From NCBI GenBank assembly GCA_038147085.1, contig JAYQSV010000001.1, forward strand, positions 485,983 through 549,982: a stretch of 64,000 nt of DNA. Reading direction: 5' to 3'. Below the pieces are notes generated by a model. That model had not been told where the DNA came from. It did no database searches and saw nothing but the letters and a program-made list of their open reading frames with translations. Both the position numbers and the translations under genes were made by a program. This stretch comes from Candidatus Actinomarina sp. GTDB taxonomy: Bacteria > Actinomycetota > Acidimicrobiia > Actinomarinales > Actinomarinaceae. Shown piece by piece: positions 1,953 through 58,771 of the stretch. The first letter of the stretch is position 1. The number at the start of each line of letters is the position of its first letter.

Positions 1953-2933
1953 TTACTTACGTAATTTAGGAAGAAGTTCTTTACCTAATAGCTTTATAGT
2001 TTCTTCCTGATTTATTGACGAGATTTGTATAGTTATAATCTCAGAGTTAAATTCTTCAACTAGTGGTTTATAAATAGTTTCAAGTTCAGCGATCGATGAT
2101 GCTCTTGAGAACTTTGACATTATTTCTTCCCTAGGAAAGCTATCTGCTTCAATTCTTAATGCTTCTGGATCAAGTTCATTTAATCTATTTGGTGCTCTTA
2201 AGCCTCTCCAGGATCTAAGTGCAGTCCATGCTTCCTCATCACTTTCAGCAAACATGGTCCATCTATATGTATGAATTGACATTTCGTCTTTTTTTAACTC
2301 TTTAGTTTTTAATCTTGCTGGTTCAATAACATTTTCATAAGCAGTTTTAGGATCTTTAACGCTTATCATTAAACCATCAGCATACTCAGCTGCTACTTGT
2401 GCAGACTTAGGACCACCAGCAGCAAGCCATATAGGAATTTTTTTAACAGGAGGGGAGTAAAGTTTTGCTTTATTTGTTTGATAATACTTTCCTTCAAAAG
2501 TTAATTTTTCACCATTAAAAAGAGATTTTATAATTTTTAAAGCCTCTATTAACCTATCTTTTCTCTCTTCATAGTTAGGAAAATTATATCCAAGAGGTCC
2601 TTCATTAATATTTTCACCAGTTCCTACACCTAGGTGGAAAGTTTTAGGTGTAAGTCTATCAATTGTTGCAGCAGCTTGTGCGATAACACCTGGGTGAATT
2701 CTCCATAGCGGAGTAGTTACTCCTGTTCCAAGATCAAGCTGAGGTAAAGTATTTGCTAGGGCTCCCAAAGTTGACCAAGTAAAATTAGATGCAGAATAAT
2801 CATCAACCCACGGATGAAAATGTTCAGATATAGTTAGCATATCAAATCCAGCATCTTTTGCTATTACTGCGTGTTTAATTAAATCTTCTGGTTGCCACTG
2901 TTCTGAACCTAAAAAATATGAAAATTTTGTCAT
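1953..2933 (-). CDS. Luciferase-like monooxygenase (LLM class, probably F420-dependent) oxidoreductase
   Basis: N-terminal DAGFDMLTISEHFHPW and overall LLM/Fgd-like architecture, 326 aa. Confidence 0.7.
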   Translation of the reverse strand: MTKFSYFLGSEQWQPEDLIKHAVIAKDAGFDMLTISEHFHPWVDDYSASNFTWSTLGALANTLPQLDLGTGVTTPLWRIHPGVIAQAAATIDRLTPKTFHLGVGTGENINEGPLGYNFPNYEERKDRLIEALKIIKSLFNGEKLTFEGKYYQTNKAKLYSPPVKKIPIWLAAGGPKSAQVAAEYADGLMISVKDPKTAYENVIEPARLKTKELKKDEMSIHTYRWTMFAESDEEAWTALRSWRGLRAPNRLNELDPEALRIEADSFPREEIMSKFSRASSIAELETIYKPLVEEFNSEIITIQISSINQEETIKLLGKELLPKLRK

Positions 2934-2965
2934 TATTTAATAATACCTTTTGATTAATTTTAGGT

Positions 2966-2988
2966 GGGTGCCTCGCTAGGAGGCACCC
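2966..2988 (-). terminator. Perfect 9-bp stem hairpin (GGGUGCCUC-cuagc-GAGGCACCC) just 3' of rnpB
   Basis: Seen directly in the sequence. Not followed by a clean U-tract, so it may be a terminator or a processing/stability hairpin. Confidence 0.4.
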
Positions 2989-2989
2989 T

Positions 2990-3330
2990 TGTTCAGTGAA
3001 AATATAAGCCGGATTCTGTTTGTGTTAAACACAAGATAATCATCCATCTTGCATATTTGTTACCAAATATGTCTAGCTACCTACCCGCAATTTTTAGTCG
3101 AGCAAACTAATTGCTTTTTGGTATTGCTCCGAGAGGGGTTTACAAGCTAACTTAATCACTTAAGCTACTGGTAGTCTCTTACACTACCTTTTCACCCTTG
3201 CTTACTAAGTAAGCGGTTTATTTTCTGTTGCACTTTCCGTCAATTTCTTGCCTGGGAGTTACCCAGCTCTCTGCTCTTTGGAGTCCGGACTTTCCTCGAT
3301 AAATCGCGATTATCCATTTCACCTAATTAG
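2990..3330 (-). ncRNA. rnpB: RNase P RNA, bacterial type A
   Basis: Minus strand carries GAGGAAAGUCCGGACUCC (P4 5' strand), AGUGCAACAGAAA, CAAGGGUGAAAAGGUAGUGUAAGAGACUACC, GUAAACCCCUCUCGGAGCAAUACCAAA and ACAGAAUCCGGCUUAU (P4 3' strand) in the canonical order. No ORF, and locally higher GC. Ends are approximate, within about 10 nt. Confidence 0.85.
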
Positions 3331-3348
3331 ATTTTAGTGATTTAGTAT

Positions 3349-3828
3349 CTATTTTGAAAAAATTATTAGTATTTCTTCGACATCGTTAAATGTTAATGGT
3401 CCTATAAATTTTTTTATTATTGTTCCCTCTTTTATTATATGTGTTTCAGGGACTCCAAATACTCCTGAATTTATGGCTAAAGTACTATTTTCATCTATTC
3501 CGTATTTGACGTTTCCTTTTCCATAAACCTCAAGAAATTTAATCGCATCAGATTTTGTATCTTGAAAAGAAATTGCATAAATGTTATTTTTTAGGGAATC
3601 GAACTCTGAAATTTCAATTAATAATTGGTGTTCTTGGATACATTCTAAACACCAAGAAGCCCAGTAATTAATAATTATTGTTTTGCTTAAATCTATTTCA
3701 ATATTCGAATTACTTTCTAGATCAGTAATGTTTTGAGTTAACTCTGGGTTTATATTGATTTGATTAGAGAAATCTGAACTTGTACAACTGACAAATATTA
3801 AAATAAAAATAATAAATTTAATTTTCAT
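3349..3828 (-). CDS. Thioredoxin-fold thiol:disulfide oxidoreductase (TlpA/ResA/CcmG-like), probable lipoprotein
   Basis: WASWCLEC active site. N-terminal signal peptide ending in ...FVSC (lipobox-like). Last gene of the ccm cluster. Confidence 0.7.
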   Translation of the reverse strand: MKIKFIIFILIFVSCTSSDFSNQININPELTQNITDLESNSNIEIDLSKTIIINYWASWCLECIQEHQLLIEISEFDSLKNNIYAISFQDTKSDAIKFLEVYGKGNVKYGIDENSTLAINSGVFGVPETHIIKEGTIIKKFIGPLTFNDVEEILIIFSK

Positions 3829-4354
3829 ATGATTTAAGAATTTCTTCTATTACTTTTTTATCTTCTAGCTCAATATCAGAATCTAACAACAAATCATTTA
3901 AGATTTCTTTACCTTCACTACGAGTAATATCATCTTGTATAAAAATAATTCCTTTATATGTTTTTGCAATTGAAGATGTAGGTAAAATATTTATTGATTC
4001 TTCAATATAATTTAAAGCAGTATTTTTATCTCCAGATTCAAACACCATCCATCCTATTTGAGCTAATGAAAAACTAATATAACTAGGTTCATTTGAATTT
4101 TGAGCGATATACATAAAATGACTTAAAGCAGAAGAATAATCGTATTCTTCAAAGTATCTATTTGCTAATGCAATTCTCATTGGAAATACGTCAGGATTCT
4201 GTGATATGACAATTTCCATCTCTTCATTTGTAACACTTTCGAGATTTGTATTAGTTTCATTTCTATTAGAAGTGTTGTTCGTTAAATTTATATATAAAAA
4301 AATAGATAATAGTAAAACTAGTAATGTACTAATGGACCATTTATTTTTTAACAT
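3818..4354 (-). CDS. TPR-repeat protein, CcmI/CycH-like
   Basis: Single N-terminal TM, then helical repeats with TPR-like spacing. Lies between ccmH and the CcmG-like gene. Confidence 0.45.
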   Translation of the reverse strand: MLKNKWSISTLLVLLLSIFLYINLTNNTSNRNETNTNLESVTNEEMEIVISQNPDVFPMRIALANRYFEEYDYSSALSHFMYIAQNSNEPSYISFSLAQIGWMVFESGDKNTALNYIEESINILPTSSIAKTYKGIIFIQDDITRSEGKEILNDLLLDSDIELEDKKVIEEILKSYEN

Positions 4355-4700
4355 AAATTTTCCTTAGAAAATTTATTACAAAAATTGAAATTATAAAAAT
4401 AGGAATCAAAATAATTTCAAAATTTCTAGTAATTGTGTCTGTAACTATTCTTTCCCCATATCTAGCTACCCAAAAATTATATATTTGTTCATCAGTAAAT
4501 CCCATCTCTAATTGTTCTTTAAGTATAATTTTCATATCAGAAGCATATCCAGAGGGTGAATCATATATAACCTCACCCTGACAAACTGGGCACAATAATA
4601 TTTTGCTCCACTTTTCATACCTTGATTCAGAATCAACTTTAAAGAATGACAAAAAAATTAAAGTTATTAATAAAATTAAACTAATTATTTTGGACTTCAT
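4341..4700 (-). CDS. ccmH: Cytochrome c-type biogenesis protein CcmH
   Basis: LLCPVCQG matches the CcmH LRCxxC motif after a signal peptide. ATG at 4700 overlaps the ccmF stop (ATGA). The ORF-track upstream extension is rejected. Confidence 0.75.
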   Translation of the reverse strand: MKSKIISLILLITLIFLSFFKVDSESRYEKWSKILLCPVCQGEVIYDSPSGYASDMKIILKEQLEMGFTDEQIYNFWVARYGERIVTDTITRNFEIILIPIFIISIFVINFLRKIYVKK

Positions 4701-6583
4701 TTTCTGATTTTTACTTTCGGAATAAAAGAAATTGAACTTATAAATAATCCAACCCAAATTATTAATATTCCAAAATTTTTTCTCACTATTAGCTTATAAG
4801 CATCATTGTTTATAGATTTAACACTTATGTAAGTATCGTATAAAAAACTTCTATAAATTGCTGGAGAACTAATTACTTGTTGAGAAGAATTATTAAATAT
4901 ATTTAAAGAAGTGTATTTAGTTATTTTACCATTTGATATTGGCAGTTTTAACACTGTTTTTTCTGGTAAATTTTCTTCAACTACATCATAAACTTGATAG
5001 TTGTTTTCTGAAAACAGAAAATTATCAAATGAATTTACCTCAAATTCTTGAGAAAAACTCTGTGTAAAATTTAATAAAATTCCAATCGCTAATACGCCAA
5101 GACCTAAATGAGCTATTTGACCAGACCAAAAAGAGGGACTTAAAACTTTGTTAAAGTTCATAATAAAGTTTTTTAAGATCAGTGTAATTAATAAAAATGA
5201 GACTGTTGTTGTCAAACTAAACATAAAAGATCTGTTAAAAAATAGTAAGAAAATGATGCTAATTAAAAGACTAGAGTTTATAAAAATAATATTTTCTTCA
5301 TAAAAGCTCTTTAAATTTATATCTTTTATAGATAGCTTTATAGAAAAGATAATTAAAAATAGTAACATTAGCAATATTGGACCAACTAAAACATCAAAGT
5401 AGTTTCTACCAATTGTAATTTGCCTCCCAAAAAAAGTTTCATAAAAAAGTGGATAGATAGTTCCAATAAAAACAATTATTGCAGAGGAGAAAAGCAGTAT
5501 ATTGTTTGCAATAAAAAACCCAGACCTACCAAATATATTATTTAGTTTTTTTGAAGTTAAAAAGTATTTACTATTTATAGAACCTATATATAGAAATAAA
5601 ATGCTAAAAAGTAGAATTCCTATCAACAAATAAGTTCCAATTGATCCATTTGAAAATGCATGAACTGAAATTAATACCCCTGATCTTGTAATAAAAGTAC
5701 CAAATAGTGTAGAGAGGAACATTAATCCAACAAGAACATAGTTCCAATTTAATAGAGAGTTATTTTGTTTAGTTACCTTTGCAGAATGTAGAAATGCAGT
5801 GGAAAGCAACCAAGGAATAAATGAGACATTTTCAACTGGATCCCAAGCCCAATATCCACCCCAACCTAAAACTTCATAAGACCAAATTGCGCCTAAAGAT
5901 ATTCCAATAGTTAAAAATAACCAAGGAATAAAAGTTAATTTTTGTGCTATTGAGATCCATTCATTATTTGAATTTCTTAGTGCTAACCTACTAATAGTTG
6001 CTACAAATGGGGCTGACATGCCTACATATCCAATATATAAAAATGGCGGATGAATAGCCATCAAGGGATGATTTTGTAGTAATGGATTTGGTCCACGACC
6101 AATTTGACTCGATACTAAATTTTGAAAAGGTAGTAACGAAGATGAATTGCAACCTATGTTACTAGCTTCAACACACCCTGCAAAAGGAGAGGAACTAAAG
6201 ATTGTATATCCAACAAAAAACAACATAATTGAAGAGTAAATTTTTGTGTCAATATTACTTTTACTAATTTTATAATTACTCAAATAGAAGAGCATGAAAA
6301 TGCTTAGTGTTAAATTCCATAACAATATGGAACCATCCAAAGCTCCCCATAAAGAAGCAAATTTATATAAAGGTGGTGTTGATGATGCAGAATAATTAGA
6401 AATGTATGCAACTGAAAAATCATCTATAAATAAACCAATTTCTAATAATAAAAATAAAAAAATATTTAAAAATACGATTAAACGCATAAAAATATGTATT
6501 TTCAATAAATTATTTGTAAATAGAATTATTCCAAGGAATAAAAACAGTAACCAAGAAGATAATATGCCTATTGAAGAAATCAT
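4697..6583 (-). CDS. ccmF: Cytochrome c heme lyase subunit CcmF
   Basis: WGGYWAWDPVEN tryptophan-rich (WWD) motif. 628 aa, more than 12 TM helices. Confidence 0.9.
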   Translation of the reverse strand: MISSIGILSSWLLFLFLGIILFTNNLLKIHIFMRLIVFLNIFLFLLLEIGLFIDDFSVAYISNYSASSTPPLYKFASLWGALDGSILLWNLTLSIFMLFYLSNYKISKSNIDTKIYSSIMLFFVGYTIFSSSPFAGCVEASNIGCNSSSLLPFQNLVSSQIGRGPNPLLQNHPLMAIHPPFLYIGYVGMSAPFVATISRLALRNSNNEWISIAQKLTFIPWLFLTIGISLGAIWSYEVLGWGGYWAWDPVENVSFIPWLLSTAFLHSAKVTKQNNSLLNWNYVLVGLMFLSTLFGTFITRSGVLISVHAFSNGSIGTYLLIGILLFSILFLYIGSINSKYFLTSKKLNNIFGRSGFFIANNILLFSSAIIVFIGTIYPLFYETFFGRQITIGRNYFDVLVGPILLMLLFLIIFSIKLSIKDINLKSFYEENIIFINSSLLISIIFLLFFNRSFMFSLTTTVSFLLITLILKNFIMNFNKVLSPSFWSGQIAHLGLGVLAIGILLNFTQSFSQEFEVNSFDNFLFSENNYQVYDVVEENLPEKTVLKLPISNGKITKYTSLNIFNNSSQQVISSPAIYRSFLYDTYISVKSINNDAYKLIVRKNFGILIIWVGLFISSISFIPKVKIRK

Positions 6584-6981
6584 TTTGAATAATTTTTAGC
6601 GTCGTAAACTTCACCATCATCAGAAATATATTCGTTATCATGTTTTACCAACATATTATCTGCTAAAAATGTGTTATTAACAAAAACACCGTCCAAAATT
6701 ACACCCATATTTTCTTGAAATAATTCTGGTACATATCCATCAAAGTTTATTGAAATAACTGTATTTCCATCTGTAATATTAAAAAGTGTGTTAGTTTCGT
6801 TTTTAGAAATTGAATCTTGCATTACGAAACCACCTAATTTTACTCTTTCATTCAACAAGTCAATATTTTCTAAAGCTTCGGTAGTTGTAAAGTAGTAAAC
6901 AGTGTTATTGTTTGCCAAACGTAAACTTGCAAAAGTTACTAAAACTAAACCTAAAATTATAAATATTAAATTTTTCTTCAC
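6580..6981 (-). CDS. ccmE: Heme chaperone CcmE
   Basis: Single TM, OB-fold region, C-terminal VKHDNEY matching the heme-binding HxxxY motif. Confidence 0.85.
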   Translation of the reverse strand: MKKNLIFIILGLVLVTFASLRLANNNTVYYFTTTEALENIDLLNERVKLGGFVMQDSISKNETNTLFNITDGNTVISINFDGYVPELFQENMGVILDGVFVNNTFLADNMLVKHDNEYISDDGEVYDAKNYSK

Positions 6982-6986
6982 TTAGT

Positions 6987-7658
6987 TTAAATTTTAGCCC
7001 TACTAGATGGGTTTAAATAATTTTCCCATTGAATATCTATTAATTTACTAAATTTACTAACTAATAAAAAATGTAAAAGTGTTGTAAATAAAACACCAAT
7101 TATTAAATAAATTAATATATCAGAAGAAATAGGTGCATTTCCTGAAGAAATTGTTTCTTGAGAAAGAATAGTGGCTTGTTGATGAATTGATCTCCACCAA
7201 ATAACACTAAAGTGGATTATAGGAATTTGAACAATTCCAAATATCCCGATGTAAGAAGAGTTTTTAGCAATTGTATATAAATCTGAATTAAATTTACGTG
7301 ATGCAATATAACCAAGATAAACCAAAAACAAAATCGCTGTTAGGTTTAATCTTGCATCACCCCATACCCACCAAGAACCCCAAGTCAATTTACCCCATAT
7401 AGATCCTGAAATAAGTGTTATAGCAGTAAAAATAAGACCTGATTTTGCATTTGAAACAGCTATTGAATCAAATTTTGGATTGTTACTAAAAAGATATTTG
7501 ATCGAATAAGTAAAAGTTATTGAGTATGCTAAATAGGCAATCCAAACCGAAGGAACATGCATATAGAGAAATTTAGAACTAATACCTTGAGTACCATCAA
7601 ATGGACCAGAATAAATTACTAACATCCACAAAAAAACTACTATTAATATTTTTTTCAT
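6987..7658 (-). CDS. ccmC: Heme exporter protein CcmC
   Basis: WGSWWVWGDARL WWD motif. Start set at the MKKILIV ATG, which overlaps the ccmB stop (ATGA). The longer ORF-track form overlaps ccmB. Confidence 0.85.
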   Translation of the reverse strand: MKKILIVVFLWMLVIYSGPFDGTQGISSKFLYMHVPSVWIAYLAYSITFTYSIKYLFSNNPKFDSIAVSNAKSGLIFTAITLISGSIWGKLTWGSWWVWGDARLNLTAILFLVYLGYIASRKFNSDLYTIAKNSSYIGIFGIVQIPIIHFSVIWWRSIHQQATILSQETISSGNAPISSDILIYLIIGVLFTTLLHFLLVSKFSKLIDIQWENYLNPSSRAKI

Positions 7659-8290
7659 TTTTTTAAAACAAAATAATTTGTAAATGCAATATTTAATAGA
7701 GTTGTTCCAGTCAGTAACATAAAATAAATGGTAGTTAGTTGGGGAGTAATACCTAACCAAATAGGACTTATAATCATAATAAAACCTATGTAGATTGGTA
7801 AAAGCAAAACCATTTGTACAAAATTATTTGAAAAATTTGTAAATAATTGGAAGTACAAGTTAGAAATAGAAGTATTTAAAACAAATAGAAAAATAGTTGC
7901 AACAACACTAAACAAGTTTGTATTTATTGTGCTATTAGTAAGACCAGAAAAAATAATAATAAAAAATAAAACCTGTGGAAAAAAAATTATAATTTCAGCA
8001 ATTAACTTACTATAAAAGTAATTTTGAAAACTGTACTGAGCAAAATTTAGTTCTCTTTTAATTTTTTTAAAATCAAAATTTCTTCTTATTGAGAATAATG
8101 TTGAAAAAATTAGCAAAAATAAAAGCTCTAAAATAAGAAACAATTCATTGTCTATAAAGAACTTATTTTGAGAAAGTAGTGGTAGAAGGATTAATAAAGA
8201 AATTAAAGTTGGAGTTATTAAATAAAGTGAAATATTATTTCTTAATTCAAGCTTTATCTCCTTTTGAAAAATTAATTTATTAAATTTCAT
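7655..8290 (-). CDS. ccmB: Heme exporter permease CcmB
   Basis: Six-TM hydrophobic protein positioned between ccmA and ccmC. Confidence 0.7.
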   Translation of the reverse strand: MKFNKLIFQKEIKLELRNNISLYLITPTLISLLILLPLLSQNKFFIDNELFLILELLFLLIFSTLFSIRRNFDFKKIKRELNFAQYSFQNYFYSKLIAEIIIFFPQVLFFIIIFSGLTNSTINTNLFSVVATIFLFVLNTSISNLYFQLFTNFSNNFVQMVLLLPIYIGFIMIISPIWLGITPQLTTIYFMLLTGTTLLNIAFTNYFVLKK

Positions 8291-8876
8291 TTAAATTTAT
8301 AACCTGAAAATCTGCACCAAAAATATCAACTAATTTTTGAGATGCGATTAAGTTCCCTTTTTTTTGGTTAGTTCTGTTATTAATGAGTTCAATAAAGAGT
8401 TTTATACCTTCATCATCTAAAAAATTGAAAGGTTCATCTATACAAAAAAAATCTGGATTATTTAACTCAATTAGAACTAATTCGCTTCTTTTTTTCATAC
8501 CACTTGAAAAAATTGAAAATCGATCATTCATAAAGTGGATTAAATTATATTTCTCAACAATTAAGCTATATTCCGAGTAATCTATTTTTCCCTTAGTAAA
8601 ATACTCAATATTTTCTTTCAGCGTAAGTTCATTAATTAAGTTATGTTCCGCACCAATTTCTAAAATAAATGTGTCGAAATTAATTTCAAAACTTGAATTA
8701 AATATATTTCCATCAAAATTATTACTTATAAAGTTGATTAAAGTAGATTTTCCAGCACCATTTTTACCAATAACAAAATAATTTTTTGTCTTATCAATTT
8801 CAAGTTTTAAATCAGAAATAACTAATTCGTTTCCATAACCTAAATTTAAATGTTGGGTTGAAATTAATTGATTCAC
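8280..8876 (-). CDS. ccmA: Heme exporter ATP-binding protein CcmA (ABC ATPase)
   Basis: Walker A GKNGAGKST, ABC signature FSSGMKKR, Walker B LVLIELNNP. Confidence 0.75.
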   Translation of the reverse strand: MNQLISTQHLNLGYGNELVISDLKLEIDKTKNYFVIGKNGAGKSTLINFISNNFDGNIFNSSFEINFDTFILEIGAEHNLINELTLKENIEYFTKGKIDYSEYSLIVEKYNLIHFMNDRFSIFSSGMKKRSELVLIELNNPDFFCIDEPFNFLDDEGIKLFIELINNRTNQKKGNLIASQKLVDIFGADFQVINLNEI

Positions 8877-8878
8877 AA

Positions 8879-10381
8879 TTATATTCTATTCGGGTGAAGT
8901 GCTAAAAATTGCATAATTAAATTCAATTCTTGAATGTATTGAGCAGTTGTTGACATATTTATCGGATAATTAATTAAACTATCTAGTACATTTTTGTTTG
9001 TTAAAATTACTTTTTGATTTTCAATTTTAAGACCTAATAATTTAATATATTCATTAGTTTTTATATTTTCTTTTGAATTTATTAAATTATAAAAATTAAT
9101 AAATGTATTAACTTTATTTAAATAATCAAAATATTTTTTTTTGGTTAATGCTTCTTCATACTTTAATTGATCAGATAGGTCTGTAATGTTTTTTTGGAAA
9201 ATTAATAAGTTATTTTCAATATTTTCAAAAAAAGTTTCTAGTTTTACTTTCGTTGTGTAAATATAATTTTCTAAGTCAAAGCTAGTTAAACAAGAACAAA
9301 TTGAATTATTTAAAATAGAATCACCACACTTCGAAGTTCTAGAGTTATTTTTTTTACAATTGACAAGTTGTAATTGAGAGTTGAGAATTTGCTTTATGTT
9401 CTGGGCTAAATTTAATCCAATAATTGGACCATATTGAAAAATAGTATTTTTAGAATCTACTACTTTAGAAATTTCCAGATTAGGTTTATTGCTTTTAAGT
9501 TTTATCCAGTAAATTTTTGTTAGTTTTTTCCCTTTTCTATTTAAATTTGGTTGTAGTAAATTGATTAATCTCGATTCAATTATTATTGCCTCTAATTCAT
9601 TTTTGCAAGAATGCATTTCTAGAATATTAGAATTAGAGATAATTTTATTTGACTTATAACTTCTAGAATAACTTAAATGTGACTGAATACGCTTTTTGAG
9701 GTTAGATGATTTACCAATATAATTATATTTTTCATTATCTTTAAATATATACACTCCAGCAGAATCTGGTAATTTGCCGATGTTAAATTTTTTCTTAATT
9801 GTAGTATCAGGTGAATTTAAAAAATTTGTTAGTTCCTTAAAGTTAGATATTCCATTTAATTTTTTGTCTACCAACATATTCATAAGTATTTCATATGTTG
9901 TTAACACGTCATCTTTTGCATTGTGATTATTTTTGTTTTGAGTCTTAAAAAATTGACTTATAGTTGACAACTTATGGTTTCTCACTTTATTTCTCAATAA
10001 TGCTCTAGACATTTTTAATGTGTCAATCTTTTCATTAAAAGAAATTTCTATTTTGTTTTTTTCAAATGCATTTTTTAAAAAACTTATATCAAAACTCAAA
10101 TTATGACCAACAACTATTGCATTTTCTAAAAAGGTTTTAATATTATTTAATTCACTTTTTAATTCAGGTGAGTTTTTAAGGTGCCAGTCGTATATTCCTG
10201 TTAATTTTGAAATAAACAAAGGAATATTTTTATTGATATTGAATTTTGAGTGATATTCATCAATAAATTCATTATTTATAACTTTCAACATATAGAGTTC
10301 GATGATCTCATCTTTACTTGGGTTTACACCTGTAGTCTCAATGTCTAGAACAACAAGTGGTTTTTTGAATTTTATATCCAA
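8879..10381 (-). CDS. DnaQ-like 3'-5' exonuclease fused to GIY-YIG (UvrC/Cho-like) nuclease domain
   Basis: N-terminus VVLDIETTG...HNLSFDISFL (DEDDh exonuclease). Middle GVYIFKDNEKYNYIGKSSNLKKRIQSH (GIY-YIG). C-terminal region carries a Cys cluster. Same architecture as the mycobacterial Rv2191 Exo-Cho fusion. Confidence 0.75.
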   Translation of the reverse strand: MDIKFKKPLVVLDIETTGVNPSKDEIIELYMLKVINNEFIDEYHSKFNINKNIPLFISKLTGIYDWHLKNSPELKSELNNIKTFLENAIVVGHNLSFDISFLKNAFEKNKIEISFNEKIDTLKMSRALLRNKVRNHKLSTISQFFKTQNKNNHNAKDDVLTTYEILMNMLVDKKLNGISNFKELTNFLNSPDTTIKKKFNIGKLPDSAGVYIFKDNEKYNYIGKSSNLKKRIQSHLSYSRSYKSNKIISNSNILEMHSCKNELEAIIIESRLINLLQPNLNRKGKKLTKIYWIKLKSNKPNLEISKVVDSKNTIFQYGPIIGLNLAQNIKQILNSQLQLVNCKKNNSRTSKCGDSILNNSICSCLTSFDLENYIYTTKVKLETFFENIENNLLIFQKNITDLSDQLKYEEALTKKKYFDYLNKVNTFINFYNLINSKENIKTNEYIKLLGLKIENQKVILTNKNVLDSLINYPINMSTTAQYIQELNLIMQFLALHPNRI

Positions 10382-23954: not shown

Positions 23955-24978
23955 CCTTAGATCCGATACAGTAACAAAACCAAATAAAGATGTAATCTCT
24001 ACCGCATTAACTGCTGAATTAGGAGATGATGAGTATGCAGAAGATAAAACAGTAAATGATCTACAGGAACACTGTGCAAACTTACTTGGATTTGAAGCAG
24101 GTCTCTTTGTAACATCTGGACTACAAGGAAATCAAATTTCTTTATTAATACATACTGATCCAGGAAATGAAGTAATTACCTTATTTGACTCACACATTAA
24201 AAATTATGAACATGGTGCAGCTAGTTTTTTATCAAGAATTCAATTCAGAGATATCGATCACATAAATGGTTTACCAGATCTTAATAATTTAGATTTAATT
24301 TTAAAAAAGTCTAAAGTACATAAACCTTTAATTAGTTGTTTAACTTTAGAAAATACTCATTTAGCATCAGGTGGATCAATTGTCTCTTATTTAGAATTAG
24401 AAAAAATATACAAATTTGCAAAAACTAATAATTTAAATGTTCATATTGATGGTGCAAGAATATGGCATGCTATTATTGAGGAAAATAACACTCAAGATTA
24501 TGGAAGCGTTTGCGATAGCTTAACATTTTGCTTCTCAAAAGGTCTTGGAGCTCCAATCGGCTCAATGCTTCTTGGATCAAAAGATTTTATTTCCAAAGCT
24601 AGAGAGTATAGAAAAATACTTGGTGGGGGAATGCGACAAGTTGGAGTTATTGCTGCAATGGCTAGGAAAGCTTTGGATAACAGAAATGATTTACTTAATG
24701 ATCATAATAAAGCTCGTAAAGTATATAATATTCTCAAAAATGAACTTGAAAACCAAGATTTTATATCAAAACTTACCTATCAAGGAACAAATATGGTTTT
24801 TCTAGAAATTAACAGTCAATTTAAACCAGCATTATTTTTAGATGAACTTTACAGTAATTCAATAATTGCAGGATTAATTAATGAAAATACTGTCAGGTTA
24901 GTTTTTCATAAAGATATAAATGATTCAGATCTAGAAAAAATTAGTGATAAAATACTTTATTCTTCTTCAAAATTTTGA
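23938..24978 (+). CDS. ltaE: Low-specificity L-threonine aldolase
   Basis: DLRSDTVTKP...GDDEYAEDKTVN...EAGLFVTSGLQGNQ matches threonine aldolase N-terminal motifs. Confidence 0.75.
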   Translation: MIVMFDLRSDTVTKPNKDVISTALTAELGDDEYAEDKTVNDLQEHCANLLGFEAGLFVTSGLQGNQISLLIHTDPGNEVITLFDSHIKNYEHGAASFLSRIQFRDIDHINGLPDLNNLDLILKKSKVHKPLISCLTLENTHLASGGSIVSYLELEKIYKFAKTNNLNVHIDGARIWHAIIEENNTQDYGSVCDSLTFCFSKGLGAPIGSMLLGSKDFISKAREYRKILGGGMRQVGVIAAMARKALDNRNDLLNDHNKARKVYNILKNELENQDFISKLTYQGTNMVFLEINSQFKPALFLDELYSNSIIAGLINENTVRLVFHKDINDSDLEKISDKILYSSSKF

Positions 24979-25196
24979 TTCCACTCAGTAATTGATTTTT
25001 CTGATAAATTAATTAATACAATTGTTCCAATTATTCCAATTGAATTAGCTATAAATATGTATGTAGTAAGTGTTAGATTGCAGTTCTCGTTTAAACTTAA
25101 ACGACAAAATGTACTTCCAAGTAAATATCCTATATAAGTAGAAAAAATTAGAACTATAAAAAGAATTACGCCTCTAACTTTGTTGCTAAATCTCAT
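24957..25196 (-). CDS. Hypothetical small membrane protein (79 aa)
   Basis: Two hydrophobic segments. No homology recognised. Could be a chance ORF in AT-rich DNA. Confidence 0.25.
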   Translation of the reverse strand: MRFSNKVRGVILFIVLIFSTYIGYLLGSTFCRLSLNENCNLTLTTYIFIANSIGIIGTIVLINLSEKSITEWNQNFEEE

Positions 25197-25219: not shown

Positions 25220-25447
25220 ATGTATTTTCCTAATCCATGGATAACAATTTTTAGTTTTGTTTACATTTTTTTAGCAGGAATATTTGGATTTAAATTTAGC
25301 AAAAAAATCGTTGAAATATATTTAAGCAAAATTAATTCAAATAAGTTTTTAAAAAGTCTCGAACCAGTAGTTGGAAGCATAGGGTTTATTTTTGGATTCG
25401 GTATTAACTTGATAATTTTATATTTTTTTATAATTTATATGTCTTAA
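25220..25447 (+). CDS. Hypothetical small membrane protein (75 aa)
   Basis: Two hydrophobic segments. No homology recognised. Confidence 0.25.
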   Translation: MYFPNPWITIFSFVYIFLAGIFGFKFSKKIVEIYLSKINSNKFLKSLEPVVGSIGFIFGFGINLIILYFFIIYMS

Positions 25448-51750: not shown

Positions 51751-52014
51751 ATGTTTTTACTTAGAATAATTGTTTTTTTAATTATCTCGTCTTTGTTATT
51801 AATACTAAGCTACCCACTTTTAATTGTATTTGATATTTCTAGAGGAGGAAATGGCTTTGGAATATGTGATGATTTAGTTCAATGTAATATCCCAATTACA
51901 GAAGGTCCAAGATTATTAGTTTTATTAATATCTTTATTTTTTGTATTAGTTTTAATGCTAAGAGGTGTTATGAAGTTTATTAATACAATTAATAAAGAAA
52001 AATCTATTCTTTGA
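51751..52014 (+). CDS. Hypothetical small membrane protein (87 aa)
   Basis: Two hydrophobic segments, no homology recognised. Confidence 0.25.
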   Translation: MFLLRIIVFLIISSLLLILSYPLLIVFDISRGGNGFGICDDLVQCNIPITEGPRLLVLLISLFFVLVLMLRGVMKFINTINKEKSIL

Positions 52015-52885
52015 TAACATAAAATATAGATACTAAAACTAACAAAACTCCAAACCAATTTAAAACACCTAGAATTTCATTTGCTATCAATAAACCAATT
52101 AGTAGTGCAAAGATTGCCTCTAAACTCAAAATTAAAGCTGATGTGGATGCCGTAACAACTTTTTGTCCATATAACTGCAAATAGAACGCAGCAACATTTA
52201 CGACTAATCCTAAGAATAAAATAGGTAATAATAATTCATTTGAAAAAATAAAATTTTTAAAGTTTAGAAATGGTAAACATAGAATTGATCCAGCAAAAGA
52301 TTGTACAAACATTAATTGAGAAATTTTAAAGTTGTTAACGTACCTTTCAACCAGGACAATATGAATAGCATATGAAAGTGCACATAATAAAGTAAATAAA
52401 TTTCCTGATATTTGTGATAAATCATTAATAGAAATGAGCACTATTCCAAAAAACCCAACAATTGATAAAATATAATTTTTTTTTGGAATATTATTTTTAT
52501 TTATAATTTTAGAAATATATGGAGTCAAAACTATATAAAACCCGGTTACTACACCAGAATTGACTGTACTTGTGGTAATAAGACCTTGAGTTTGAGTTAT
52601 GTAACCTAGCCAAAGGAAGAACCCCATTAACACTCCAGGATAAAAAGCTTGCTTTCTTGGAAGACCACCAATGAATAAAAATAATATAGAAGCAATAAAA
52701 AAACGAGCAAAAACAATTAAAACAGGAGATACAGTAATTAATAAGTTTTTAACAACTAAGAAAGTTGAACCAAAAAAAAGAGCAGATATAATTAACGCAA
52801 AATATGCTTTGAGCTTTTGATTGGTACCCATAGGATTGAACATTATTATATAACTTAAATTAAAAATATGAGTACTAAGAAACAA
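52004..52885 (-). CDS. EamA/DMT-family transporter
   Basis: 10 TM helices with duplicated EamA-like halves. Real start probably the internal ATG near 52831, which would avoid a head-to-head overlap with nth. Confidence 0.7.
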   Translation of the reverse strand: MFLSTHIFNLSYIIMFNPMGTNQKLKAYFALIISALFFGSTFLVVKNLLITVSPVLIVFARFFIASILFLFIGGLPRKQAFYPGVLMGFFLWLGYITQTQGLITTSTVNSGVVTGFYIVLTPYISKIINKNNIPKKNYILSIVGFFGIVLISINDLSQISGNLFTLLCALSYAIHIVLVERYVNNFKISQLMFVQSFAGSILCLPFLNFKNFIFSNELLLPILFLGLVVNVAAFYLQLYGQKVVTASTSALILSLEAIFALLIGLLIANEILGVLNWFGVLLVLVSIFYVIKE

Positions 52886-53509
52886 ATAAAGGCTAATAAA
52901 ATTCTAAACATTTTAGAAGAGATTTACCCTTCGGTCCCAATTCCACTTCATCACAGAGACCCGTTTACTTTATTAGTAGCAGTGGTGTTATCAGCACAAT
53001 GTACAGATGTTCGTGTAAATCAAGTAACCCCTGATTTATTTAAAGTAGGTGGAACACCGAAAAAAATGTCTCAACTACCGGTGCAGAAAATTGAAAAATT
53101 AATACGACCTTGTGGTCTATCACCGCAAAAATCAAAAGCTATAAAAAAATTATCAAAAATAATATTTGAAAAATATAATTCAAAAGTACCGGAGAGTTTT
53201 AGTGAATTAGAAGAATTACCAGGAGTAGGACATAAAACAGCTTCAGTGGTTATGAGCCAGGCATTCAACGTTCCTGCATTTCCAGTAGATACACATATTC
53301 ATAGACTTGCATATAGATGGGGTTTGTCATCAGGTAAGAATGTTGTGCAAACTGAAAAAGATTTAAAAAAAGTCTTTCCTAAAAATAAATGGAACAAGCT
53401 TCATCTTCAATTTATTTTTTATGGAAGAGAGTATTGTCCTGCAAGAGGACATGACATAACAAATTGTATTATTTGTAATCTATATGGAAGAAAAGTTAAT
53501 TTTAAATAA
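52868..53509 (+). CDS. nth: Endonuclease III
   Basis: HhH-GPD motif (LPGVGHKTASVV) and C-terminal Cx6Cx2Cx5C [4Fe-4S] cluster. Confidence 0.85.
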   Translation: MSTKKQIKANKILNILEEIYPSVPIPLHHRDPFTLLVAVVLSAQCTDVRVNQVTPDLFKVGGTPKKMSQLPVQKIEKLIRPCGLSPQKSKAIKKLSKIIFEKYNSKVPESFSELEELPGVGHKTASVVMSQAFNVPAFPVDTHIHRLAYRWGLSSGKNVVQTEKDLKKVFPKNKWNKLHLQFIFYGREYCPARGHDITNCIICNLYGRKVNFK

Positions 53510-53553: not shown

Positions 53554-54261
53554 GTGGATATTAATTTTAGTATCGCTTTTATATTTGGATTTCTATCTTT
53601 TTTCTCACCTTGTGTATTACCTTTAGTACCAGGCTATTTAGCTATATTTTCACTACAAAGAAATCACAGCTATGAGAAATTAATTGGTGCAATACAATTT
53701 GTATTTGGATTCTCAGTAGTATTCATATCTTTAGCTGCAATAACAACTTCAATTGGTTCATTTTTTACAAAAAATGCAAGTTTACTTTCAAAAGTTAGTG
53801 GAGTAATAATAATTATTTTTGGACTGATTTTATTAATACCAAAATTAAATTCAAAATACTTCTTTAGTTCGAATTTTATTAATATTGACAATTTTAAAAA
53901 AACCAAAAATTTTATTATGGGTTTTACTTTTGGTTTCGGTTTTACACCATGTATAGGACCAGTTTTAGGTGCGCTATTAACTTTGTCTTCAAATGCAGAG
54001 ACTGCTCAATCTGGAATATTTTATTTAGTATTTTTTTCTCTCGGCTTGGGAATACCATTTATAACAATTTCTGTAATTTCCAATAAAGTTAATTTTAAAA
54101 ATAGAATTTTTATTGAAATTCAAAAAATTTCCTCAAAGCTTTCAGGATTAACACTATTGTTTATTGGAACATTAATTTATATGGACAAAATGTATTTGTT
54201 AGCCTCTTTTTTTCAAAATTTATTAATATCATTAAATTTAGAATGGTTAAGTACGATCTAA
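53554..54261 (+). CDS. ccdA: Cytochrome c-type biogenesis thiol-reductant transporter CcdA (DsbD family)
   Basis: FFSPCVLPLVP and second-half Cys (TPCIGP) in a 6-TM protein. Confidence 0.8.
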   Translation: MDINFSIAFIFGFLSFFSPCVLPLVPGYLAIFSLQRNHSYEKLIGAIQFVFGFSVVFISLAAITTSIGSFFTKNASLLSKVSGVIIIIFGLILLIPKLNSKYFFSSNFINIDNFKKTKNFIMGFTFGFGFTPCIGPVLGALLTLSSNAETAQSGIFYLVFFSLGLGIPFITISVISNKVNFKNRIFIEIQKISSKLSGLTLLFIGTLIYMDKMYLLASFFQNLLISLNLEWLSTI

Positions 54262-56267: not shown

Positions 56268-58771
56268 ATGATTATCCTAATTGACGGACATAGCATTGCG
56301 TTCAGAGCATTTTATGCTTTACCAGAAACATTAGTTACAAAAGATGGTTTTCCAACGAATGTAATTCATGGTTTTTTAATGATGCTATCAAAATTAGTTA
56401 AAGATTATGAACCTGAGCAGATAATTGTAACTTGGGATATTTCAAAAACAACATTTAGATCAGAAATTTTTCCAGACTACAAAGCTAATAGAACTTCATC
56501 ACCAGAAATTTTTAAAGTTCAAATAAAAAGTCTTCAGCAGCTACTCAAAAACTTTAATATCCCACAAGTTACAGCTGAAGGTTTTGAAGCTGATGATGTT
56601 CTAGGTTCTCTAGCTTTTAAATTTAATAAAGAGAATAAAGAAGTTCATATATTAACTGGTGATAGAGATTCTTTTCAATTAATTAATAACTCTACAAAAA
56701 TTCTTTTTACAAGAAAAGGAATTAGTAATATAGAAGTTTTTGATCAATCATTTTTTGAAGAAAGTTTTCAAATTTCTACTGAACAATACATTGAATATCT
56801 TGCTTTAAAGGGAGATCCTTCTGACAATATACCAGGGGTACCTGGAATTGGTGAAAAAACTGCTAAATCTTTATTGATTCAATATAAAACTATCTCAAAT
56901 ATTTTAGATAATGTTGAATCACTAAGTCCAAAAATTAGAGATAGCTTAATTCAAAATAAAGAATTGCTAGAGCTAAGTAGAAAACTTGCAACAATTAAGA
57001 AGGATTTAAAATTAGAACTTCCAACTCTAACTATTCATGATTCAATTTTTTTTAATGAGAAAATTTTAAATAATTGTATTGAAGATATAAATTCTTATGA
57101 ATTAAATAGATTTCTTGGAACCTCAGAAGCAAAAAAAAATGAAACTACTAACAAAATAAACTCTATTAGAGAATTAGATAAAAAAACAAAATTACAAGGT
57201 AAATATATAGTTTTCTTACACAATGATTATTTTTATTTCACCAATGGTAAAGATTACGGAAAATCTAAATCAATAGGAATCTTTCAAGAAGTAATTTCAG
57301 TTAATTCTCAAAATATCGCATTATTTGATTCTCAAATTTTAGATATTAAAAATTTTATTGCTTTAGATTGTATATTATTTTTGATTAATCCTTCAAATAA
57401 ACCCGACTCAATTTTAAATGTTTGTAAGTCAATAAATATTCTTAATAATTTAGACAAAAAATCAGATGAAATCAGTTTTTTGAATTTTTTTCATGAAAAT
57501 TTTAAAAATGTAATTAAAATTTTATCAAATTTTAATAAAGATAAAATAAGTCTTAATTTATACAAAGAAATCGATTTTCCAATGTTAGAAATTCTTTCAA
57601 GCATGGAAAAAAATGGAATAAATGTTTCATTAAAAAAAATGAAGAATTGTCTAATTCTCTTTCTGTAGAACTCAAAGAGTTGCAAAAGAAATGCTTTTCA
57701 CTTTCAGGGATAGAGTTTAATTTAAACTCTCCAAAACAATTATCGGAAGTACTTTTTCAAAAATTAAACCTCCCAATAATAAAAAAAACACCTTCAGGGG
57801 CACCTTCTACTGATGCGAGTGTACTTGAAGAATTATCTATAAATAATGAACTTCCAGCAGTAATTTTAAAGTACAGAGAACTTGAAAAGATAAGATCAAC
57901 ATATGTTGACGGATTAATTCCAGAAGTCTCAAACGAAGAAAAAATTCATACTCATTACAACCTTTTTGGAGCAGCTACTGGTAGATTGTCTTCTGAAAAA
58001 CCAAATTTACAAAATATTCCAAACAAAACAGAACTTGGTCAAAAAATTAGAGATTTTTTTATAGCATTACCAAATCATAAATTTGTAATTTCAGATTACT
58101 CACAAATTGAATTAAGAGTTTTAGCACACTTAAGCAATGATAAGGAGATGATTAAAATCTTACAAAATGTCGATTCTGATATCCACTCAGAGACAGCTTC
58201 AAGGATATTTAATGTAGATATTTCAAAAGTTGATTATGAAATGAGGAGAAAAGCTAAAGAAGTAAATTTTGGACTTATTTATGGAATGGAAGCATTTGGA
58301 TTGTCAAAAAGTTTAAATATTGAACAAAAAGAAGCAAGCAAATTAATTGAAAATTATTTTTCACAATTTCCTTCTATTAGAGGGTATTTAGAGGAAGTAG
58401 TTAAGTCAGCTGAAGAAAAAACTTATACATCAACTTTACTAGGAAGAAAGCGGTATATAAATGAACTTTCTTCATCTAGTTTTCAGATTAGATCAATGGG
58501 TAAAAGAATCGCTATGAATGCTCCAATTCAAGGCACAGCCTCAGATATTATGAAAAAAGCTATGGTAAATATCTCTAAAAAAATAGAGAATTATGATGAT
58601 ACTAAAATATTACTTCAGATACATGATGAGATTGTTGTTGAGTCATCTGATGTCAGTGTACAAAAAATTAAAGAGATAGTTGAAATAGAAATGAAGAACG
58701 CTGCAAGATTAAAAGTTCCATTGTTTGTTAATACTAAAGTTGCAACAACTCTTGCAAATTTTAATAATTAG
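56268..58771 (+). pseudogene. polA: DNA polymerase I, split in two ORFs by a -1 frameshift in an A8 run (57632..57639)
   Basis: ORF1 (56268..57668) holds the 5'-3' exonuclease and proofreading-like region. ORF2 (57647..58771) holds the polymerase palm/fingers (DYSQIELR, QIHDEIVVE). Inserting one A at 57632..57639 gives the continuous ...GINVSLKKNEELSNSLSVELKELQ.... Confidence 0.85.

Follow-up and report, generated by a model that had tools for sequence, protein, structure and literature searches.

How does a genome-streamlined marine actinobacterium attach heme to its c-type cytochromes? We analyzed a stretch of 64,000 nucleotides from Candidatus Actinomarina sp. (contig JAYQSV010000001.1; hereafter the window), in which eight consecutive, tightly packed open reading frames (ORFs) on the minus strand at 3349-8876 resemble a cytochrome c maturation (Ccm) operon of the System I type. 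The locus raises two questions: is the operon foreign or native to its lineage, and does the system operate without the small protein CcmD, for which we found no gene in the window? Our data favor a native, vertically inherited System I operon of the genome-streamlined marine Candidatus Actinomarinales, a reading to which we assign a probability of roughly 0.85. As a maturation system the operon is what the Acidimicrobiia ordinarily inherit, and it is new only as a lineage-specific variant. The traits predicted to set this variant apart are a ccmD-less locus, a CcmA with glutamine in its H-loop, a hyper-diverged CcmB, and a lipoprotein CcmG.

An eight-gene ccm operon under purifying selection

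The operon has the order ccmA-ccmB-ccmC-ccmE-ccmF-ccmH-TPR(ccmI-like)-ccmG, TPR standing for tetratricopeptide repeat. Its genes, the ccmC-ccmE spacer, and the unlinked ccdA are listed below with the families or other grounds on which they were named.

8280..8876, minus strand: ccmA, ATP-binding cassette (ABC) ATPase of the holo-CcmE release complex (PF00005, TIGR01189)
7655..8290, minus strand: ccmB-like ABC-2 permease (position, transitive homology, fold)
6987..7658, minus strand: ccmC, heme-handling WWD protein loading heme onto CcmE (PF01578, TIGR01191)
6982..6986, no strand: ccmC-ccmE spacer of 5 nt, the ccmD slot of other Acidimicrobiia
6580..6981, minus strand: ccmE, membrane-anchored heme chaperone (PF03100, NF009727)
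4697..6583, minus strand: ccmF, holocytochrome c synthase (PF01578, PF16327, TIGR00353)
4341..4700, minus strand: ccmH, thiol-disulfide partner of CcmF (PF03918)
3818..4354, minus strand: ccmI-like membrane-anchored TPR protein, presumed apocytochrome chaperone (homologue in the same position)
3349..3828, minus strand: ccmG/DsbE thioredoxin-like reductase (TIGR00385, PF00085, PF08534)
53554..54261, plus strand: ccdA, membrane thiol-reductant transporter (PF02683, PF13386)

With the homologue-supported starts of ccmC and ccmH, all junctions are overlaps of 4-14 nt, the 5-nt ccmC/ccmE spacer being the sole exception. The longest ccmC ORF spans 6987-7760 (TTG start at 7760), and homologues support the ATG at 7658; for ccmH, the ORF extends back as far as a TTG at 4757. 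The NCBI assembly GCA_038153385.1, which encodes an identical CcmF, has gene calls corresponding to ccmC 6987-7658 (223 aa) and ccmH 4341-4700, and ccmH is called as a 119-aa protein in the related locus L081. Residue numbers used here follow the longest reading of each ORF.

The window proteins were scanned against Pfam and NCBIfam, which name six of the eight ORFs: a CcmA-like ATPase, CcmC, CcmE, CcmF, CcmH, and DsbE/CcmG. The other two, a 211-aa membrane ORF in the ccmB position and the 178-aa ORF at 3818-4354, were not directly recognized. Each protein was also aligned with 49-77 homologues from related loci, and columns at least 90% conserved (His, Cys, Trp, Asp, and similar residues) were inspected; the window proteins keep every invariant catalytic column (His, Cys, Trp, or Asp). 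An initial annotation, made from the sequence alone, had described a tightly overlapping eight-gene minus-strand operon, and we found the ORFs and coordinates as it gave them. Its gene identifications are correct, six through Pfam and NCBIfam and those of ccmB and the TPR gene through homologues, and the WWD, HxxxY, and CxxC motifs it reported are all present and align with conserved columns.

Among the Actinomarinales loci, the ratio of nonsynonymous to synonymous substitution rates (dN/dS) lies between 0.03 and 0.31 for all eight genes. The operon is therefore under purifying selection and no relic.

Distribution and inheritance of the operon

Relatives of CcmF were sought by scanning one genome per GTDB species. 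The best matches, at 59-60% identity, are the single-cell genomes of OCS155 cluster bacterium AG-333-G23 and Candidatus Actinomarina sp. AG-313-C18. Dozens of metagenome-assembled genomes of Acidimicrobiia and Actinomycetota follow at 30-37%, with Gemmatimonadota, Deinococcales, and Limnocylindria interspersed from about rank 16. These relatives bear out the initial guess of an actinobacterium-like genome. Candidatus Actinomarinales is an order of the Acidimicrobiia (PMC12008989), and its description is that of ultra-small bacteria whose streamlined, low-GC genomes have a median spacer of 3 bp (PMC3747508). The packed window fits that description of streamlined genomes; its GC content is 0.29. 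An F420-type luciferase-like monooxygenase (LLM) oxidoreductase and a PRK07883-type DEDD exonuclease, both encoded next to the operon, are typical actinobacterial genes.

Synteny was assessed by tblastn of the window proteins against 80 loci (L001-L080), to which L081-L088 were added. The Actinomarinales set comprises 11 loci (the window, L001, L002, and L081-L088), that is, about 64 kb of window and about 140 kb over ten related loci from genomes and metagenomes. L001 and L002 reproduce the window exactly, in the order TrmH, DEDD/GIY-YIG exonuclease, ccmA-B-C-E-F-H-TPR-G, LLM. L081-L088, which include a Global Ocean Sampling contig and Tara scaffolds, share the window order, and synteny spans leuA to an MMPL gene.

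Outside Actinomarinales, ccmB is undetectable by tblastn, and the remaining series ccmA-C-E-F-H-TPR-G was found in at least 10 Acidimicrobiia-type loci (for example L005, L006, L007, L010, L011, L012, L014, L034, and L047). The full series also occurs in L069, from the cultured Actinomycete Haloechinothrix. Seven loci keep F-H-TPR-G with no tblastn match for ccmA or ccmE (L008, L013, L015, L019, L020, L041, and Tersicoccus L026). The TrmH and DEDD/GIY-YIG genes lie upstream of ccmA in L017, L019, L020, and L047 as well. A second group, of Acidimicrobiales, has the order F-G-H.

Because gene order and flanks are conserved across orders of the Acidimicrobiia, we consider the operon vertically inherited. 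In a neighbor-joining tree of CcmF, a long branch unites the window and Actinomarina, and the H-TPR-G group of Acidimicrobiia lies beside it; this is a rough distance tree in which midpoint rooting places the long Actinomarinales branch, a point that counts against leaning on it heavily. The base composition of the cluster (GC 0.253, and 0.175 at third codon positions, GC3) lies within one standard deviation of the 56 other window ORFs (0.287±0.039 and 0.164±0.022), so that the comparison of GC and codon usage proposed in the initial annotation revealed no anomaly.

That annotation had regarded a full System I as unexpected here. The same gene order in at least 10 Acidimicrobiia-type loci and CcmF relatives in dozens of genomes speak otherwise, and its suggestion of lateral acquisition gives way to inheritance in view of the synteny, the shared flanks, and the position in the CcmF tree. 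It had itself allowed that the operon would be vertical and unremarkable if System I were common throughout the clade, and this is what we find. System II, which it presumed for Actinobacteria, is indeed that of model Actinomycetes such as Corynebacterium glutamicum (PMC9145763), but the presumption fails for the Acidimicrobiia. Its other suggestion, a lineage-specific trait, is right for the loss of ccmD and the derived CcmA and CcmB, which are specific to Actinomarinales, and wrong for System I itself, which is class-wide. A textbook over-generalization is thereby corrected: the Acidimicrobiia, including the abundant marine Actinomarinales, use System I and not the System II of model Actinomycetes. 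The framing as a foreign System I is of little importance. In the literature searched, no published account of Ccm in Acidimicrobiia or Actinomarinales was found.

Two further observations concern the distribution of the operon. The cultured Actinomycetes Tersicoccus phoenicis (L026) and Haloechinothrix sp. (L069) carry an Acidimicrobiia-type System I operon that includes CcmD and the TPR gene; hence, System I is not confined to the Acidimicrobiia within the phylum. In L004 and L009 (ccmF at 10001 onwards), only ccmF-H-TPR-G is present, with no ccmA, ccmC, or ccmE detectable in the 10 kb upstream, and these genomes seem to have the operon in two separate units.

Heme-handling proteins CcmC, CcmE, and CcmF

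CcmC matches PF01578 (101.9 bits) and TIGR01191 (136.9 bits). It carries H68, WGSWWVWGDARL, and H193; H68, W122-D135/R137, and H193 align with columns at least 90% conserved among 62 homologues. The protein thus shows the System I arrangement, with one periplasmic His ligand on each side of the WWD motif. Its dN/dS, computed with the 223-aa protein, is 0.03-0.2.

The WWD motif of CcmC contains a one-residue insertion (WVWGDARL) that is common to about 18 other loci. It precedes the invariant Asp, giving W-x-W-[GSAQE]-D instead of W-x-W-D. Insertion-bearing proteins occur in L006, L010, L012, L013, L017, L019, L020, L034, L038, L041, L051, L058, L066, L068, L075, and L079, a scattered subset of Acidimicrobiia, Deinococcales, and Limnocylindria. 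Because the roughly 18 loci that share the insertion have CcmD, the insertion is unrelated to the loss of ccmD. The CcmC tail differs as well: the motif VAGxAVxxPxL, conserved in Acidimicrobiia (L005 at 9191-9379, L007, L008, L010, L011, and L013-L016), is replaced in Actinomarinales by W(E/N)(N/D)YLNPxxRAKI (6987-7040 in the window).

CcmE matches PF03100 (77.7 bits) and NF009727 (103.5 bits) and has the bacterial-type heme-binding motif H114xxxY118 (KH114DNEY118), in which both H114 and Y118 are conserved. CcmF matches PF01578 (104.9 bits), PF16327 (98.4 bits; the CcmF_C domain), and, with its highest score, the generic CcmF/NrfE family model TIGR00353 (295.9 bits). It contains the WWD motif WGGYWAWDP, the periplasmic histidines (P-His) H178 and H308, and the transmembrane histidines (TM-His) H266 and H492, whose functions, like those of the WWD residues, have been described (PMC10746174); none of the conserved His and Trp columns is altered. 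No WWD protein other than CcmC and CcmF turned up in the six reading frames of the window. A specialized NrfEFG-type lyase was considered and rejected: there is a single ccmF, it lies inside the ccmABCE operon, and the window encodes no second WWD lyase. The absence of any CXXCH- or CXXCK-type cytochrome candidate from the window also disfavors such a lyase.

The ccmD slot is closed in Actinomarinales

Wherever both genes were present in a locus, the ccmC-ccmE interval was searched. It holds, in 43 non-Actinomarinales loci, an ORF of 35-67 aa with one hydrophobic helix and a basic tail, following the pattern G-[FYW]-V-x-x-[AG]-[YW]-x-x-T...Y...L-x-x-R-x-R. Pfam CcmD (PF04995) was matched by 15 of the 37 small ORFs scanned at E≤1, the best E value being 4.6e-6. 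Published CcmD proteins are 37-100 aa long and variable in sequence, with 37 aa in Deinococcus, and the lengths of the 43 ORFs agree with these sizes (PMC12077264).

The interval measures 5 nt in the window and 5-32 nt in those of the other Actinomarinales loci where both genes are called. The initial annotation had likewise seen no ccmD in this gap, and the spacer at 6982-6986 indeed holds none. A hidden Markov model (HMM) built from the 43 CcmDs found no CcmD-like ORF among the six-frame ORFs of the window, L001, and L002 (best E 2-2.7); the same model recovers those of L005 (6.6e-14) and L047 (5.2e-13). No CcmD-like ORF was found in the ten other Actinomarinales loci, and no small ORF with a hydrophobic run occurs on either strand at 2900-9000. 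In the intergenic spaces of the window ccmD was not found: six small candidates gave only YggT in Pfam, the others being unrelated. We conclude that ccmD is lost from its canonical slot throughout the Actinomarinales loci examined.

Two possible hiding places were rejected. Fusion of ccmD to CcmB (211 aa), CcmC (223 aa), or CcmE (133 aa) is contradicted by the lengths of these proteins and by the lack of an extra transmembrane segment, and the 415-nt gap after ccmG is taken up by RNase P RNA.

On balance, we lean toward an Actinomarinales System I that is truly without CcmD, a bacterial system that keeps an HxxxY CcmE, CcmH, CcmI, and CcmG and combines an H-loop-Gln CcmA with a radically diverged CcmB. 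The alternative, a canonical CcmABCDEFGHI system whose ccmD has moved elsewhere or is too diverged or too short for detection, is possible but the less probable. Relocation could go unseen in 64 kb of a roughly 1-Mb genome, yet ccmD lies between ccmC and ccmE in 43 of the loci examined, and in Actinomarinales with both genes called that slot has closed to 5-32 nt. CcmD is short and poorly conserved (PMC12077264), and sequence searches for it are insensitive, Pfam reaching just 15 of 37 bona fide small ORFs; against a merely overlooked gene stand the absence of any small transmembrane ORF at 2900-9000 and of any CcmD-like ORF in the 64-kb window, as well as CcmC, CcmE, and CcmB lengths that give no sign of a fusion.

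A system truly without CcmD would matter beyond this lineage. CcmD has been stated to be universal in bacteria, essential where tested, and absent only in archaea, so its loss, if true genome-wide, would be a natural bacterial counter-example to that universality and essentiality (PMC9084895). It would mean holo-CcmE release that works without CcmD and with an H-loop-Gln CcmA, and would offer a minimal natural system in which to ask what CcmD and ATP hydrolysis do in that step. Whether CcmD serves in release, WWD reset, or heme acceptance is debated (PMC9616876, PMC12077264), and the Actinomarinales system would bear on this debate. Few marine bacteria are more abundant or more streamlined than Candidatus Actinomarinales. 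The ccmD result is a side result of modest specialist value.

A release module with an altered H-loop and a diverged CcmB

CcmA matches PF00005 at 59.6 bits and TIGR01189 at 56.9 bits, the latter below the model cutoff of 131.6. Its Walker A (GKNGAGKST), signature (FSSGMKKR), and Walker B (FFCIDEP) motifs are all intact. The H-loop reads ASQ, with Gln instead of His (residues about 183-186). In the alignment from 88 loci, (S/A)SQ is found in every Actinomarinales CcmA shown, including L001, L002, and L081-L088, and His in all of the others shown. The catalytically weak site of TAP1 carries Gln at the same H-loop position. By analogy, slower ATP turnover by the H-loop-Gln CcmA is plausible.

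The ORF in the ccmB position (7655-8290, 211 aa) gave a weak match to PF01061 (25.3 bits). Its family is narrow: it has 207 close relatives in 5.8 billion clusters, none annotated as CcmB, and its profile finds 27 representatives among 1.84 billion proteins. The connection to CcmB runs through a bridging sequence, P0135, which matches the Actinomarinales profile (E 1.1e-27) and also the HMM of Acidimicrobiia CcmB (40.2 bits, E 1.4e-14); the L005 member of that HMM matches PF03379 at 71 bits. An AlphaFold2 model of the ORF product (mean predicted local distance difference test score, pLDDT, 74; predicted template modeling score, pTM, 0.77) has an N-terminal helix followed by six transmembrane helices. 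The top Foldseek matches of this model are the transmembrane domains of ABCG proteins and NosY (TMq 0.57-0.68).

Several results weigh against the assignment. The ORF has no PF03379 or NCBIfam CcmB match, it scores a non-significant 3.5 bits with the HMM of Acidimicrobiia CcmB, and hhalign comparison with CcmB was non-significant whether 3 or 123 family sequences were used (P 0.005 and 0.016, respectively). The family profile, run against PDB sequences, gave 0 matches, Foldseek did not return a solved CcmB chain for the model, and what the assignment draws on is the position of the ORF, transitive homology, and an ABC-2 fold of a generic kind. On these three grounds, we nevertheless accept the ORF as encoding a putative, highly diverged CcmB.

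The H-loop change from His to Gln in all Actinomarinales, a CcmB missed by Pfam, NCBIfam, and PDB sequence profiles, the missing ccmD, and a ccmB GC content (0.215) that is the lowest in the cluster might instead be taken to mean that ccmA and ccmB are decaying in a streamlined lineage, leaving a system that is partly functional or has no ATP-driven release. We judge this improbable, because no ORF is broken anywhere in the clade, ccmB and ccmA have dN/dS values of 0.09-0.16 and 0.07-0.31, about 67 CcmB columns are invariant across sequences only 45-48% identical to that of the window, and the Walker and signature motifs of CcmA are preserved.

Thiol-redox proteins and the TPR protein

CcmH matches PF03918 (60 bits) and carries the CxxC motif C56PVC59 within LLCPVCQ, both cysteines being conserved. 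For the TPR ORF (3818-4354, 178 aa), direct TPR matches are faint. It matches the ORF in the same position of Acidimicrobiia at 25-41% identity by tblastn, and its counterpart in L005 (12503-13300) matches TPR_19 at 51.6 bits. The gene, with a dN/dS of 0.03-0.28, is presumed to encode a CcmI-like TPR protein that would act as an apocytochrome chaperone.

CcmG scores 84 bits with TIGR00385 (DsbE; model cutoff 123), 29 bits with PF00085, and 27.9 bits with PF08534. It contains W59C60LEC63 (WCLEC) and the cis-Pro motif GVPET, and W59, C60, C63, P127, and E128 are conserved. The protein has a lipoprotein-type signal (...IFVSC), and the lipobox-like Cys at the end of the signal is kept in all Actinomarinales (window, L001, L002, and L082-L084). 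CcmG of the other Acidimicrobiia examined (L005, L007, and L011) has a plain N-terminal transmembrane anchor without such a Cys. This suggests that the predicted mode of membrane attachment of CcmG switched between Actinomarinales and other Acidimicrobiia.

The initial placement of CcdA at 53554-54261 is supported by a PF02683 match of 50.7 bits, together with a PF13386 match of 33.2 bits and two Pro-Cys motifs in the translation. The gene is unlinked to the operon, its neighbors being nth (HhH-GPD, 52868-53509) and a 190-aa ORF; neither resB nor ccsA was found beside it.

Proposed pathway and substrates

Homology with the system of E. coli and Rhodobacter suggests a pathway. CcmC would bind heme b at its WWD/His-His site on the outward-facing side of the membrane and present it to CcmE, which would bind the heme covalently through His114. 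The CcmA-CcmB ABC module would then spend ATP to release holo-CcmE. Together with CcmH and the TPR protein, CcmF, which has a b-heme ligated by H266/H492 and a WWD/H178/H308 site, would attach the heme to the CXXCH motif of the apocytochrome. To keep the CXXCH cysteines reduced, CcmH would act with the lipoprotein CcmG, which the unlinked CcdA would re-reduce.

The substrates are assumed. No reading frame of at least 60 aa in the window contains CXXCH, in keeping with the initial statement that the window lacks an apocytochrome gene, and such a gene is absent from all Actinomarinales loci examined as well, which counts against the proposed function. The likeliest substrates are presumably the dihaem QcrC of menaquinol:cytochrome c reductase and any oxidase cytochrome c domain. 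According to published summaries, Actinomarina and its sister order have cytochrome c, a menaquinol:cytochrome c reductase, and a cytochrome c oxidase.

Comparison with known maturation systems

Like System I of E. coli, Rhodobacter capsulatus, and Paracoccus, the window encodes CcmA, a CcmB-like protein, CcmC, CcmE, CcmF, CcmH, a CcmI-like TPR protein, CcmG, and CcdA, with the heme-ligand, WWD, and CxxC residues conserved and the genes in a single operon. Unlike bacterial System I, it has no ccmD between ccmC and ccmE, a Gln in the CcmA H-loop, a CcmB beyond the reach of PF03379, a one-residue insertion in the CcmC WWD motif, and a lipoprotein-type CcmG. The gene order is H-I-G in the window and G-H in bacterial System I. 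With the Acidimicrobiia-type operons (L005, L007, L011, L014, L047, L026, and L069), the window shares the order ccmA-B-C-...-E-F-H-TPR-G at 30-47% protein identity, whereas those loci have a CcmD of 35-67 aa, a Pfam-recognizable CcmB, His in the CcmA H-loop, and a transmembrane-anchored CcmG.

The archaeal CcmABCEF of Methanosarcina acetivorans also lacks ccmD, and production and release of holo-CcmE without CcmD have been demonstrated in that organism (PMC9084895). By analogy, we infer that holo-CcmE release would be CcmD-independent in Actinomarinales. The archaeal system has no CcmH or CcmI, a CxxxY CcmE, and scattered genes of mixed origin by horizontal gene transfer (PMC9084895), in contrast to the window with its CcmH, TPR protein, CcmG, HxxxY CcmE, and single operon. 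The absence of ccmD is the sole trait that the window shares with archaeal-type System I*.

System II, found in Actinomycetes and Bacillota such as C. glutamicum and Bacillus subtilis, performs the same overall task, and both systems use CcdA and a thioredoxin-like reductase. In Actinomycetes, its genes for ResB/CcsB and the WWD protein CcsA/ResC typically adjoin ccdA. In C. glutamicum the set is ResA/CcdA/CcsB/CcsA, CcsA being a WWD-family relative of CcmC and CcmF (PMC9145763). Unlike the window, System II has neither a CcmE heme chaperone nor an ABC module, and the window contains no ResB and no third WWD protein. Import of the Ccm operon from a Gram-negative or other donor, in replacement of an actinobacterial System II, is very improbable: it would fit the System II of model Actinomycetes (PMC9145763), the window ccdA not adjoining resB/ccsA, and a CcmF tree that splits the actinobacterial sequences in two, with the F-G-H Acidimicrobiales group near the Deinococcales so that ancient transfers within the phylum are conceivable, but the operon order recurs in at least 10 Acidimicrobiia-type loci and the flanks in four, synteny is complete across Actinomarinales, GC and GC3 are unremarkable, the nearest CcmF relatives are all Actinomycetota, and any transfer must predate the divergence of these Acidimicrobiia orders and is thus irrelevant to this genome.

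Neighboring features

The RNase P RNA gene (RF00010, 278 bits) lies at 2989-3325 on the minus strand and fills the 415-nt gap between ccmG and the LLM oxidoreductase gene; the size of this gap is conserved in L001, L081, and L082. Three small ORFs of 75-87 aa, at 24960-25196 (minus strand), 25220-25444 (plus strand), and 51751-52011 (plus strand), each have two hydrophobic segments and no Pfam match, and sit in intergenic space, which is otherwise rare in the window.

The DNA polymerase I gene is divided between two overlapping ORFs on the plus strand (56268-58771; junction 57631-57668): the first, of 466 aa, holds the 5'-3' exonuclease part, and the second, of 374 aa, has the family-A polymerase domain. 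The frame changes at or just past an A8 homopolymer (57631-57638), through either a genuine frameshift or an assembly error in homopolymer length.

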